Position numbers: made by a program. Shown in pieces: positions 30,001 through 34,814 of a stretch of 34,814 bases of DNA. Source of the stretch: Microcystaceae cyanobacterium (GTDB lineage Bacteria > Cyanobacteriota > Cyanobacteriia > Cyanobacteriales > Microcystaceae); the NCBI GenBank assembly GCA_041746575.1, contig JBGTGT010000074.1, forward strand, positions 1-34,814, written 5' to 3'. Position 1 is the stretch's first letter; every line of letters begins with the position of its first letter.

Positions 30001-33000
30001 TCTTAAGTGTGATCGAAGCGGCAGAGGCAGGGGGCGAAATTCGAGTTCATATCTCTCGACGAACGAAAACGCTGAATATCGCCGTTTGGATTTCTCATCC
30101 TTGGTTAGGAGACGGAATTCCACAAGTCGTTTCCTATCGCAATCTTAGACATCAACCTTCCTCTTCTGTCATTAGTTCTTCTGAGGCGAGTGATATCCCT
30201 TCAACCCATCAAGTGGTAACCGTTGCTTCCCTAGAATCGGCCATTAACGGTGGTTCATTGAGTGCTTCTTTATGCCAAAATCCGCAAGAATTGCTCGGTT
30301 TGTTACTTTGTTGCCATTTAGTAGAGAGCCACGGCGGAAAAATCGTCATTCAAGGCTCAGATGAGTCGGGACGCCGTTATGTTCTTATGTTACCGAAAAT
30401 TGCCGCCGAAGAAAAATAAACGTAAAGTAAAGATATTTAGCAGACTTAAATCTTATCGTAGGGGGGTTTTAGAAATAAGGACACCCCTATTTGGGAGCAA
30501 TAAAATAGACTAAGAGTAAGTCACCCTCAATCTACATTGTCAAAACCCATCTATGTTGAGTTATTCGTCTTCCCCTCTCTGTCCCTCTTCTCGTCTCCTT
30601 TTTCCGATTGAAGGAGTATGTAAACCGAATGAGGCATTACGGAGCGACTGCTCATGAATTTAACACAAGTTGGCGGATTATGCTTAATCTTAATCGTTGT
30701 GCCAATTTTAGGCGCATTACCGCTAATTCAAGGAATTTTTGGGGTCTGCACAGGTCGCAATTTAAAGCAACTTGGAACAGGCAATATTTCAGTATCAGCA
30801 GCTTTTTATCACGGCGGGACAATTATCGGTATTTTAGCTGTCTTATCAGAAGCCAGTAAGGGCATTCTTGCGGTTTTACTCGCTCGCTTTTTTTTTCAAG
30901 GTGATCCCACTTGGGAATTATTATCCCTGATGGCATTAGTAATAGGACGCTATTGGGGCGGCAAAGGTGCAGGAGTAACTAACGTATTTTGGGGGATGAT
31001 GGTGCATGATTGGCAAGCAACCCTTTTATCTGCCTTAATCGGACTGGTTAGCTTTACCCTATTTCGAGAAAGACGGTCTGGCCAATTTGCCATTCTATTT
31101 ATTTTGGTATTGGTGTTAACTTTGCGTCATCCTTATAATCAGACGTATATTGGCATGGCGTTCCTGTTGATGGCTTTACTGGCATGGATATTACGACGGA
31201 TGCCCGATGATTTAACGTTGCCGGACACGGGTGTTTCATCAGATGCAAAACAAATGTTTCAATTTTTCCGAGGCGATAAGGCCTTAATTTCCTTAAATCA
31301 AAAGTTAAAAGCGAATAAAGTCGGACAAAAAGCGGCGAATTTATCTAAAATTAAACGCTTAGGTTATGCCGTTCCCGATGGTTGGGTTTTACTACCTGGG
31401 GATGACCCCCAAGCGGTGATTGATTGTCTTGATGTTTCCATCCATAACCCATTCGTGGTTCGGTCATCTGCAATGGGAGAAGATGGAGAAAATGCTTCAT
31501 CAGCCGGACAGTATTTAAGTATTTTAAATATTACTACTAAAGAAACTTTAAAAAATGCAATTTTTGATTGTTTAGGCTCTTATAACCGAGTAAATGCCCG
31601 TCAGTATCGTCAAGATTTTCAGCAAATTGAGCAAGAAATGGCGATTTTGATTCAGCGACAAGTGCAAGGGGTCTTCTCTGGCGTTGCTTTTAGCCGAGAT
31701 CCCGTCAATCCTTGGCATAAGGGCGTCATTATCGAAGCATTACCCGGTGATGCCACTCAAATTGTCTCAGGACACTTTACCCCTGAACGCTATGAGGTTG
31801 AATTAGAAAAAGAAAACAAAATTACGCCCCTAAATGATCAGACAGGAGATATTCCTGCTTCTATTCTCGAAAAAGTCGCTCAAATTGCCAGAGAACTTGA
31901 AAAACACTATCAAGGTATCCCGCAAGATATTGAATGGAGTTACGACGGAACAGAACTTTGGCTCTTACAAACCCGTCCGATTACCACAAATACCCCAATT
32001 TGGACTCGAAAAATTGCCTCAGAAGTGATTCCGGGGGTGATTCGTCCGTTAACGTGGTCTATTAACCGTCCTGTTACCTGTGGTGTCTGGGGAGATTTAT
32101 TTACACTGGTTTTAGGTAAACGCGCTCAGGGATTAAATTTTGCTGAAACCGCAACTTTACACTATCAACGAGCGTATTTCAATGCCACCTTATTAGGGGA
32201 GATTTTCCTTAAAATGGGATTACCCCCTGAAAGCTTAGAATTCCTGATAAGAGGGGCAAAATTCACTAAACCGCCCTTAATCGCTACTTTACGCAATATG
32301 CCAGGATTATGGCGTTTATTGCAACGGGAATGGTCCTTAGAACGGGATTTTCAGCGAGATAATCAACGGTATTTTCAACCTCTTTTAACTCATTTAGCCC
32401 ATAGTACTTCAGAAAATCGAACGGTTAAACAAATTCATCATCGTATTAAGTCAATACTCTCGATTTTACCTAAAATTACCTATTACAGTATTCTTTCTCC
32501 CTTAAGCTTTGCCCTCCGTCAAAGTCTTTTCCGTATTCCCTTTGAACAATTAGACCCAAGCCAAAGTCCTGAAATTGCCTCTATTCGAGCCTTAGCCGCT
32601 TTAGCAGACCAAGAAAGAAAGTTATTGCCAATGGATCAATTAGAAGTTAGTGATTGTGCATCTTTATTTGCTTACTTGGCTGAAAATCCCGACGGAAAGA
32701 CGATTTTAGATCAATTTCAAGACTGGTTACAAGACTACGGTTACTTAGGAGAAGTTGGGACGGATATTGCCGTTCCCCGTTGGCGTGATAATCCCCATCC
32801 CGTTCGAGAATTATTCAGTCAGTTCTTATTGAATCCTGAGCTGGCGACTAAAGCTCAAATAAAGACCGTTACCCCCTCGAAGAAGCCTCCTAAAGCTTTG
32901 CAAAACCGTCTTCACCTCAAAGGAAAGGTCACGGCAGTTTATGCTTGTTTTCTGGCTCAATTGCGCTGGCAATTCCTCGATTTAGCCCGTCTTTGGTGTC

Positions 33001-34814
33001 AGCAGGGTCTTTTAGAAACAGAAGATGAGATTTTTTTCCTAGAATTTCCGGACATTGAAGCGTTAATCAGCGAAGATAACCCCGACTTACGCAACACTTT
33101 AGCTCAACGATTGCAAGACCGACAAAACCAGTATTCTCATTATCTGTCTTTAGAACACATTCCCTTTGTGTTGTATGGTAATCGTCCCCCTTCGATTCCT
33201 TTGATACCTAATGAAGAAAATACTGATTATTTAGAGGGAATTGGCGCAAGTTCTGGGATTGTTGAAGGAACAGTTCAGATTTGCTTTGATTTAAGTGATA
33301 TAAACCAAGTGGATTCTAACGTGATTGTGGTTGTCCCTTCTACCGATGCCGGTTGGACTCCTTTATTAGCCAAAGCAGGTGGAATTATTGCAGAAGTGGG
33401 GGGAATGTTATCTCATGGTGCAATTATTGCCCGTGAATACGCTATTCCTGCGGTTATGGATGTTCCCCATGCCACTCAGCGCCTGAAAAATGGCCAACGT
33501 ATCCGGATGGATGGTCAACAAGGACTTATCTTTCTTCTAAAATAACGTGAGTTCGACGGAGTTAAAAACCACTTTGATCATACCAAAAATTCAAGTCAAA
33601 GCATTAAAGTTTTGGCGGTTATCTTAAATAGCAATCGCTAACAATCAAGACAAAAATTGTAGCTAAAAAAGAGCAGAAGGCAAGGCCACCTTTCCTTTAT
33701 GCTCCAAATCTAGTGATGGTTTTTGAGGTAAATAATATGAAATCGCAAAAAGAATGCTATAAATAAGAGAAGGGAAATAAGGAGGAGAAAATGTCAGGAG
33801 TTTTAAAAATAGAGATAGCGGAATCGGTGGAAACTCTCAAAGAAAAGCTAAAAAAAGAGAGAAATAGCCGCAATCAGCACAAAATCCAAGTCTTATACTG
33901 GCTAAAGACTAAGCAAGCTGAGTCAGTTGAACATTTAGCCGTGTTGACTGGCAAGCATCGAACAACAATATCTAGATGGCTAAGTCAGTACCGTGCGGGC
34001 GGCATCGAAGAACTGTTATTGCTGAAAAAGAGTAGCGGAAGAAGCCGAGTCATTCCGCCGGAAATCGAAGCCAAGCTGCAAGAAGAATTAAAAGATAAAG
34101 AAGGATTTTCTAGCTATAAAGAAATCCAAACCTGGCTGAAAGTGTGTGGGGATTTAGAGGTGGATTACCGACTAGTACACAAGTTAGTAAGATACCGACT
34201 GAAAGGGAAGTTAAAAGTGCCAAGGCCCGTTCACGTTAAACAAGAGCCAGAAGCGGTAGAAACCTTTAAAAAAAACTCGGAGAAAAGCTTAATAAAACGT
34301 TAGAAAACCATCGTGAAAAAAGGGAAAAATATCCAAAAGGTCAGATACTGGTGCGAAGATGAGTCGCGAATTGGCTTAATCACGCTCTGGGCTAGAAAGC
34401 TAACAGCAAGGGGAATTCAGCCAGTTGGAATAGAACAATGGTGCTTTGATTATTTGTGGTTATACGGAATGGTCGAACCCAAAACAGGAGAGAGCTTTTT
34501 TACAGAAATTTCTCATGTAGATGGAGTTTGTTTTGAGCACTATTTGAAATGGTTTGCTAAAAAATATCCTGACGAGCTACACATTATACAATTAGATAAT
34601 GGTCGTTTACATACCTGGTCAGAGTTAGAAGTTCCTGAGAATATCATTTTATTATTTCAACCCCCTTACAGCCCGCAAGTCAATCCCATTGAACGATTGT
34701 GGAAAGAAATCAAGAAGCATCTCAAGTGGGAATTGTTTAATAATTCAGAGGAATTAAGAAGTAAATTATCTCAAGTTTTGTTAGAATTAACCTCAACAAC
34801 AATTGCTTCAATCA

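Follow-up and report, generated by a model that had tools for sequence, protein, structure and literature searches.

A PlsY-fold membrane domain that has lost its glycerol-3-phosphate ligands, fused to a rifampin phosphotransferase-type dikinase in a Microcystaceae cyanobacterium

What does a protein do that databases name glycerol-3-phosphate (G3P) acyltransferase and/or PEP synthase, when it joins a PlsY-like membrane domain to a dikinase? The question is raised by one gene in the window analysed here, a stretch of 34,814 nucleotides (contig JBGTGT010000074.1) of a Microcystaceae cyanobacterium. The 963-aa frame begins with ATG and has no internal stops, and its Pfam matches follow in the order G3P_acyltransf (aa 17-178, 57.6 bits; cut-off 24.1), PPDK_N (aa 264-447) and PEP-utilizers (aa 887-957), with PF27448 (Rph_4th) spanning the middle. 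The fusion described in the first-pass annotation is therefore real, and its statement that a normal plsY lies elsewhere in the genome was also borne out (contig C129). The gene stands alone between a GAF-HisKA gene on one side and an IS630 element on the other, and a promoter and terminator scan gave no signal usefully above that of shuffled sequences. The product is very probably a two-part coupled enzyme that is neither PlsY nor PEP synthase (Table 1).

Table 1 Features of the fusion gene, with positions in the window
Feature	Position	Strand	Basis
Complete gene, DD-type PlsY domain and RPH-type dikinase in one frame	30654..33545	+	
DD-type PlsY-fold membrane domain, aa 1-190	30654..31223	+	Pfam PF02660, structure model, fold match
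Motif 1, G41-G55	30774..30818	+	Alignment; residue roles per PMC5700162
N44, equivalent of PlsY oxyanion Asn37, retained	30783-30785	+	
R99 and shortened phosphate-hole loop G105-A-G-V-T109-N-V-F-W113-G	30948..30995	+	Alignment
D185-D186; D186 at PlsY Arg183, charge reversed on G3P side	31206..31211	+	Joint alignment
ATP-grasp domain, aa 216-447; K226, R270-S-S, E276-D277, E427, Q439, R441	31299..31994	+	
RPH-type substrate-binding domain, aa 448-850; E457 retained	31995..33203	+	
K756-G757, at RPH Arg666-Glu667	32919-32924	+	Gapless count from alignments
Swivel phosphohistidine domain	33216..33542	+	
Swivel His921	33414-33416	+	

When the model of the membrane domain was used in a fold search, PlsY (5xj5) was recovered with Z 18.0 and rmsd 3.0 over 184 residues (runner-up Z 6.2); Foldseek gave a TM of about 0.7, and the model has the seven-helix PlsY fold. 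Model confidence had been reported as low; alignment-based models reached a pLDDT of 91 for this domain and 87 for the full-length protein. The likeness to PlsY (PDB 5XJ5-9; TIGR00023; PMC5700162) lies in the fold, the motif-1 Asn and a glycine loop starting TMH4, which is 5-6 residues shorter in the cyanobacterial fusion. TIGR00023 was absent from the 25 model matches, out of 30, listed for the fusion protein, and two stand-alone variant domains scored 84.6 and 68.3 bits against its cut-off of 137.2.

In the available text on the aaPlsY structure (PMC5700162), Arg45, Lys104, Asn180 and His177 are the G3P binders, and His177 was demonstrated not to act as base. Asn37 is there the oxyanion residue, which contacts neither substrate and has a role in catalysis, and the Thr41 hydroxyl holds the acyl carbonyl (T41A retains 4.75% activity). 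In the fusion, the clamp residues Ser35, Arg45, Lys104 and Asn180 together with His177 are represented by T42, Y52 (in motif 1), no in-register Lys, M183 and L180. The G3P ligands are lost, and the earlier view that the protein is not a G3P acyltransferase stands; the missing Arg and His, described there as acyltransferase residues, are rather G3P ligands and not catalytic. The "GKG" phosphate motif described as kept is an hhalign choice that needs a two-residue gap in TMH4; it is rejected by the joint alignment with intermediates, where K104 of the fusion is out of register with the clamp Lys of PlsY.

The same loss was observed among the variant domains. The G3P clamp and the 2-OH ligands of PlsY are lost, and its His177, Asn180 and Arg183 are substituted in the joint alignment; the Arg183 position is R in 30/30 canonical PlsY, acidic in 54/54 non-cyanobacterial variants and D in 38/45 cyanobacterial domains. 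Arg45 is retained in 8 of the 54 and in none of the 45. The Asn37 equivalent, in contrast, is kept in 53/54 non-cyanobacterial variants and 40/45 cyanobacterial fusion domains; the canonical PlsY of the same phylum has Ser at this position in 26 of 30. In PlsY the acyl-phosphate hole is built from the loop backbone, His92 and Ala40/Thr41. The putative acyl-phosphate site of the fusion keeps N44, S48 and G-x-G-x-T, with PlsY His92 replaced by R99 (166/166 aligned cyanobacterial fusions). By alignment the fusion has lost the G3P ligands and retained Asn37, and appears to retain the acyl-phosphate loop. G41, N44, G105 and H921, previously called invariant, are highly conserved but only near-invariant (162, 162, 159 and 162 of 166 fusions). 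The membrane half had also been regarded as an anchor; its conservation (0.73) equals that of the dikinase half (0.60-0.76), which argues that it is more than that.

The dikinase half is supported as an RPH/PigC-type His-swivel enzyme, as first proposed, with the superfamily order of ATP-grasp, substrate domain and C-terminal swivel His. The best PDB sequence matches were 5fbs/5hv1/5hv2 (E 5e-42), and the fold search returned entries titled rifampin phosphotransferase; the RPH, PigC and RedH models matched below their cut-offs (201-213 bits against 999-1350). RPH-Lm (PDB 5FBS/5FBT/5FBU/5HV1-3; NF041857; PMC4844700, available text), the top match in both sequence and fold, shares the domain order, and its Lys22, Arg117 and His825 correspond to K226, R270 and H921, conserved in 163, 166 and 162 of the 166 fusions (His921 also in 65/65 of a second alignment). 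It differs in that NF041857 reaches only 201 bits (cut-off 999), HMMER leaves the first, N-terminal half of its substrate domain unaligned, and the fusion carries the additional seven-helix membrane domain; nothing was found that points to an action on rifamycin. The half was described as intact. This holds for the ATP-site Lys and Arg and for the His; it is not wholly so because RPH Glu667 corresponds to Gly757, and to Gly in cyanobacteria, although 38 non-cyanobacterial partner dikinases have R (24) or K (12) at Arg666 and E (29) at Glu667. The cyanobacterial substrate domain has conserved basic residues (R452, R622, R752 and K756). The prodiginine ligases PigC/HapC/RedH (NF052631, NF052632; PMC13534948, available text) have the same three-domain relay, in which phosphorylation activates the substrate for later condensation. 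The fusion scores 208-213 bits against their cut-offs of 1300-1350, no pig/red cluster is nearby, and the second step would lie in a separate PlsY-fold domain.

The fusion is as widespread as was claimed, being found in 120/132 genomes of the same order (E<=1e-30; counted by hand for families f1-f19, G000 left out) and in 133/401 genomes of the phylum sample at the same threshold. Canonical plsY was co-present in 26/26 fusion-bearing genomes compared. No complete stand-alone cyanobacterial membrane domain was found among the 120 of 146 shorter matches listed, which are mostly marked partial or on short contigs. Truncated paralogues of 330-420 aa exist, and full-length fusions without His921 and motif 1 survive as open frames (L036-L038; P0276 cluster, n=14). 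In agreement with the first reading, no neighbours are conserved past close kin at 50 cyanobacterial loci (mostly 1.5 kb flanks; 20 with about 6 kb).

The distant clade mentioned earlier proved far wider than claimed, with split genes and archaea included. The DD-type domains form a branch apart from canonical PlsY, that of cyanobacteria included (SH-aLRT 99, quick tree), and in many bacteria and archaea they are fused to or adjoin the dikinase. Among 56 genome loci of the variant, 12 are fused and 18 adjacent; the 80 metagenome loci surveyed yielded 60 variants, 24 fused and 19 adjacent, while the 17 not coupled lie mostly on short contigs and canonical plsY adjoins the dikinase in 0/9. For main-clade variants unlinked to it, a dikinase is present elsewhere in 4/5 genomes. 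The halves also decay together: of 35 sequences compared by eye, whose rows are kin, 20 have both halves intact, 14 have both degraded and one is mixed (L046 is borderline). A basal Chloroflexota branch of the membrane domain lies in glycosyltransferase clusters, with a dikinase in 0/5 genomes, which suggests that the domain is itself an enzyme. Canonical plsY is absent from 3/5 variant hosts checked (two archaea, one Saccharibacteria), and this speaks against a substrate as common as a fatty acid of the ordinary kind.

Light-stress, carotenoid or tetrapyrrole genes were observed at 12/30 and then 8/21 variant loci, compared with 0/21 controls (kin loci, not independent). A membrane-anchored chelatase-like gene adjoins five loci (L085, L087, L127, L173 and L231) and another chelatase type is close to L110 and L191; bilin-reductase-fold genes occur at L124 and L191, TspO at L148 and L165, and an FrhB-like gene at L200. 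Isoprenoid-type neighbours are polyprenyl synthases (L207, L228) and IspH (L101, L155, L200), and carotenoid-type neighbours are a crtB/crtI/crtY cluster (L200) and a CrtO-like gene (L129). L181 has a MenA-like gene, DedA/VTT genes occur at 10 or more loci, and at L165 the genes for the membrane domain and the dikinase flank a CDP-alcohol transferase. Chelatase-like, bilin-reductase-like and TspO genes are also generic in light-stress clusters, and PF12740, a general hydrolase family, is unspecific as a chlorophyllase-type marker. The setting is likely to be protection from light or photo-oxidative damage. Counted against this, light-stress genes are missing from the neighbourhoods of the cyanobacterial fusions, and expression of the orthologue cce_1632 is flat (1.6-fold up under light limitation).

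We favour, at a probability of roughly 0.4, a mechanism in which ATP turns a hydrophobic acid into an acyl-phosphate and the PlsY domain moves the acyl group to an acceptor other than G3P. If the conserved RPH machinery works as in its relatives, ATP and water would give AMP, Pi and phospho-His921, and the swivel would ferry the phosphate to the substrate domain, where the carboxylate of the acid would become a labile acyl-phosphate. From PlsY anatomy, the retained phosphate-hole loop would grip this intermediate and Asn44 would steady the oxyanion during acyl passage; the acceptor is probably neutral or cationic because of the Arg-to-Asp change. Counted in favour are the kept Asn37 equivalent, the lost G3P ligands, the linkage and joint decay of the two halves, the dikinase-free Chloroflexota branch and the basic cyanobacterial pocket, which would suit an anion. 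HapC/PigC offer a family precedent for phosphorylation followed by condensation (PMC13534948, available text), and acyl-phosphate is described as labile, with channelling to PlsY argued, in that of PMC5700162. PlsX/FakAB with PlsY follow a like logic, an activated acyl donor being made beside a membrane acyltransferase; their activating module is unrelated to the His-relay dikinase that would make the donor in the present case. E. coli Aas is a further case of this logic. Counted against acyl-phosphate formation are the Gly at Glu667, which is essential in RPH, and the non-cyanobacterial changes of Thr41 to Ala (28/54; Ser in 36/45 cyanobacterial domains) and of His92 to Thr (46/54), as well as the fact that no RPH-type enzyme phosphorylating a carboxylate is shown in the publications consulted.

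The first-pass annotation preferred a lipid- or isoprenoid-phosphorylating enzyme, and such a kinase is a live rival and a distinct possibility. The protein would then be a membrane-tethered dikinase (ROH + ATP + H2O -> RO-phosphate + AMP + Pi) for an isoprenoid alcohol, hydroxy-carotenoid, quinol or phenolic photosensitiser, with the PlsY-fold domain taking the substrate from the bilayer or holding the lipid-phosphate product. RPH itself phosphorylates a hydroxyl (PMC4844700, available text), R/K-E at 666-667 is retained in the non-cyanobacterial partners, the system is also found in archaea, and the polyprenyl synthase, IspH, carotenoid, MenA-like, DedA/VTT and CDP-alcohol transferase neighbours would suit it; however, not one isoprenoid gene recurs consistently, the dikinase-free basal branch is left unexplained, and no role remains for the near-invariant Asn37 equivalent or the new Asp. 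The residue pattern appears to fit acyl-phosphate activation and transfer at least as well. As a special case of the latter, the propionate of a porphyrin or chlorin might be activated and then esterified, amidated or ring-closed, removing phototoxicity. Tetrapyrrole-type neighbours at 11/51 non-redundant loci (0/21 controls) point this way, as does the chelatase-like family, present in 2/5 genomes with the system and, among 301 Chloroflexota, only in the seed genome. Nevertheless, tblastn found no chelatase-like, bilin-reductase-like or TspO neighbours in the fusion's own genome; this detoxification is unlikely. Co-occurrence with RCC reductase was rejected (11/186 class genomes, and absent from the genome of the fusion). 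A disposal of photosensitisers in prokaryotes, with cyclopheophorbide-enol-like ring closure in the membrane among the options, would be similarly improbable; in sediment bacteria and archaea it would rely on partners of the chelatase-like, TspO and bilin-reductase-like types, and in cyanobacterial chlorophyll turnover the fusion would act alone. According to the available text of PMC6775998, which covers eukaryotes only, the genes responsible for cyclopheophorbide-enol formation are not known.

A sensor or scaffold, whose membrane domain controls the dikinase through a bound lipid phosphate and catalyses nothing itself, would account for the open frames persisting without His921 and motif 1 and for the short paralogues; such forms are derived decays, and the intact majority retains catalytic residues in both halves. 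This reading is quite unlikely. The database names are very improbable and, as far as sequence can tell, refuted. PF02660 passes its cut-off, source annotations use these names and a genome-scale model places cce_1632 as PEP synthase (PMC3329150, available text); yet the G3P ligands are gone, a canonical plsY is present in all 26 fusion-bearing genomes compared, and PEP synthase has a central swivel and a C-terminal pyruvate-binding barrel, whereas the fusion has an RPH-like order, lacks that barrel and scores 169 against the TIGR01418 cut-off of 740.

No publication on this fusion protein was found in our literature searches, most subscription papers and supplements lying outside their coverage. 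The gene is near-universal in its cyanobacterial order, wrongly named in databases and entered as PEP synthase in at least one metabolic model. It defines two unstudied groups, a subfamily of PlsY and a family of dikinases, whose members occur together in bacteria as well as in archaea. The light-stress neighbourhood narrows the candidate substrates to tetrapyrrole acids, fatty or oxidised acids, and isoprenoid or carotenoid alcohols. If activation and transfer is true, we have found no earlier case either of a PlsY fold with non-G3P chemistry or of an RPH-family member that makes an acyl-phosphate.

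The gene is a single open frame of 963 codons without interruption. It has a GAF-HisKA gene on one side and an IS630 element on the other, and no conserved neighbours were found for it across 50 cyanobacterial loci. When compared with solved structures, the protein was closest to Listeria rifampin phosphotransferase (RPH) entries (sequence E-value 5e-42; 2e-94 with a profile), which were also its top fold match, and it scored far under the cut-off of every RPH, PigC, RedH and PEP-synthase model. For the membrane domain (model pLDDT 91; full-length model 87), PlsY was the sole fold match (Z 18.0, rmsd 3.0, 184 aligned; next match Z 6.2). 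A separate canonical plsY is present in the same genome, as in 26 of 26 fusion-bearing genomes compared.

Features of the contig and of loci (L) and proteins (P) collected for comparison; the pair is the PlsY-like domain with its dikinase
Feature	Location	Strand	Remarks
Fusion gene	30654-33545	+	
G3P_acyltransf	aa 17-178		Pfam
PPDK_N	aa 264-447		Pfam
PEP-utilizers	aa 887-957		Pfam
Rph_4th	centre of 963-aa protein		
GAF-HisKA-HATPase protein	28881-30419	+	phospho-acceptor box LTQELRTPL, Gln replacing the usual His; weak HATPase score; likely a pseudo-kinase
IS630-family element	33791-34813	+	two frames, cut by contig end; second ORF passes NF033545
Glutaminase-STAS-cNMP fusion	26741-28570	+	adjoins ldpA and AAA-R3H gene
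Membrane-anchored CbiX/ferrochelatase-like family	L127:1397-2671, L085:613-1893, L087:10891-12117, L173, L231		beside the pair; rare, highly conserved
Bilin-reductase/coproporphyrinogen-oxidase-fold proteins	L124:9579-10367, L191:1607-2524		hydrophobic N-terminus; non-phototrophic hosts
Second divergent PlsY-like family	L127:6269-7027, L141:10554-11261, L173:1364-2143		insertion in motif 1; next to the pair
Full-length pseudo-enzyme forms	L036-L038, L045; P0276, P0270		His to Gln; L036-L038 also without motif 1 and adjoining kaiABC-like genes
Shortened degenerate paralogues, 330-590 aa	L055:5832-7604; P0295, P0296, P0300, P0302, P0304, P0305, P0310, P0315, P0325		partial membrane domain, decayed ATP-grasp; recur as own clusters

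As described in PMC5700162, aaPlsY clamps the phosphate of glycerol-3-phosphate (G3P) with Ser35, Arg45, Lys104 and Asn180, His177 contacts the 2-OH without serving as a base, the acyl-phosphate hole consists of His92 together with the backbone at residues 104-107, and Asn37 stabilises the oxyanion. This numbering was transferred, via the genome's own PlsY, to one alignment that combined 30 canonical, 54 non-cyanobacterial variant and 45 cyanobacterial domains. Asn37 was retained in 53/54 non-cyanobacterial and 40/45 cyanobacterial domains. Arg45 was present in 8/54 and 0/45, respectively, the clamp Lys was found in 21/54 and is by register absent from the cyanobacterial domains, His177 and Asn180 are substituted, and the Arg183 position is acidic in 54/54 and Asp in 38/45. 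His92 is replaced by Thr in 46/54 and by Arg in 45/45. By this residue pattern, the G3P side is lost and charge-reversed, and much of the acyl-phosphate side appears to be retained. The 'GKG', regarded in the first-pass annotation as a kept PlsY phosphate-binding motif, registers instead with the three residues preceding the PlsY glycine loop; a basic residue at this place, conserved in the non-cyanobacterial and the cyanobacterial variants alike, may provide a new phosphate contact. In a quick tree (89 rows, SH-aLRT support, no bootstrap), the variants and cyanobacterial domains, together called DD-type, share one side of a branch (SH-aLRT 99), apart from canonical PlsY, including the cyanobacterial ones.

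The membrane domain is conserved to the same degree as the dikinase half, where His921 and the ATP-site residues are conserved. By gapless count backwards from aligned G785/G695, K756-G757 occupy the positions of RPH Arg666-Glu667, both required for the second transfer according to PMC4844700. The R/K-E pair is retained in non-cyanobacterial dikinase partners and the Glu is lost in cyanobacteria, where the basic set comprises R452, R622, R752 and K756.

With a threshold of E<=1e-30, the fusion was matched in 133 of 401 phylum genomes (120/132 in the same order; 46/46 in family f6). Genus g7 gave a match in 1/4 genomes and 217 genomes of 12 unlisted families gave one weak match, while none was found with this query in the small-genome family f25 (0/33) or genus g2 (0/5). 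Non-cyanobacterial fusions and stand-alone variants were recovered when 1.84 billion representatives were searched with a profile.

Scanning GTDB genomes for the motif returned 72 loci: the variant was fused to the dikinase in 12, adjacent to it in 18 and alone in 26, while 10 loci were canonical or ambiguous and 6 were chance matches. By database record names, the hosts are bacteria (Chloroflexota, Thermotogota, deltaproteobacteria, Actinomycetota, Planctomycetota, Saccharibacteria and Alphaproteobacteria) and archaea (Methanomassiliicoccales, Bathyarchaeia and Asgard archaea). Of 119 metagenome matches, 80 had flanks; among these the dikinase was fused in 24 and adjacent in 19, the variant stood alone in 17, 9 were canonical and 11 were chance matches. 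Where main-clade variants were unlinked to a dikinase, 4/5 genomes carried one elsewhere (one copy frameshifted). For the non-cyanobacterial dikinases, the best 120 of 420 relatives were stand-alone or fused to PF02660 and nothing else. In cyanobacteria the halves decay jointly (both intact 20, both degraded 14, mixed 1; 36 rows minus one partial; scoring was visual, L046 was a borderline case and some of the rows are kin). The dikinase was absent from 5/5 genomes with the basal Chloroflexota variant branch in glycosyltransferase clusters, and the family is scarce across Chloroflexota (one strong and two weak matches among 301). This basal DD-type PlsY, seen in L105 and 19 related loci within a glycosyltransferase/LPG-synthase-like cluster, is a candidate glycoconjugate acyltransferase.

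Neighbourhoods were counted after loci were collapsed at 80 % identity, using markers composed post hoc on genome loci and then applied to 21 further metagenome loci: photolyase, DUF523-DUF1722, CIA30, TspO, lipocalin, pyrimidine-dimer glycosylase, heliorhodopsin, fasciclin, DUF1731, chelatase-like, bilin-reductase-like and Rieske-VanA. These genes are associated with light. At least one marker occurred in 12/30 genome loci with flanks and in 0/14 control loci, for which 132 of 195 ORFs were scanned and two near-duplicates were omitted. The metagenome replicate gave 8/21 versus 0/7 (43 of 120 control ORFs scanned), with Fisher p of 0.075 against those 7 controls and 0.003 against all 21, both overstating the significance, as several loci of the replicate are related to loci of the discovery set. 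One further locus, L200, carries a crtB/crtI/crtY/ispH cluster. According to PMC11417400, DUF523-DUF1722 (RudS) genes share light-responsive operons with genes for photolyases and carotenoids.

The simplest reading, to which we give a probability of about 0.4, is that the ATP-driven phospho-relay dikinase would turn a hydrophobic acid into an acyl-phosphate, whose acyl group would then pass to an acceptor other than G3P. We favour it because the oxyanion Asn and phosphate loop are kept, the acceptor site is reversed and the dikinase partnership is near-obligate; HapC is reported to use activate-then-condense chemistry within the RPH/PigC-type family (PMC13534948). The change of Thr41 to Ala in 28/54 non-cyanobacterial variants speaks against a retained transferase. 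Nearly as likely, the protein would act simply as a kinase on the hydroxyl of a lipid, isoprenoid or phenol, which suits the isoprenoid, DedA and CDP-alcohol-transferase neighbours as well as the archaeal hosts. Of five hosts checked, two archaea and one Saccharibacteria lacked canonical plsY.

Tetrapyrrole disposal, the boldest specific case, is improbable. Tetrapyrrole-binding folds lie near the pair in 11/51 loci, five of which have a membrane-anchored chelatase-like gene next to it. PMC6775998 states that it is unknown which genes form cyclopheophorbide-enol. Against a direct light-stress or tetrapyrrole link in cyanobacteria, chelatase-like, bilin-reductase-like and TspO partners were not found on searching this genome, and RCC reductase showed no co-occurrence with the fusion (11/186 genomes). 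Expression of the orthologue cce_1632 counts on the same side: supplements report steady transcription (RPKM 99-218) and list no peptides (PMC4630603), little oscillation (PMC4431719), and 1.6-fold higher levels in light limitation than in ammonium limitation (PMC3329150). For the His-less SYNPCC7002_A0291, the supplement of PMC3468840 lists increases of 1.7-fold under methyl viologen and 4.6-fold under salt.

No publication on the PlsY-dikinase pair was found in the open-access literature (supplements: four papers). The folds of the membrane and dikinase parts are known, yet each, judging from sequence, falls outside its named family. The fusion gene is a real, widespread, mis-annotated and uncharacterised putative enzyme.
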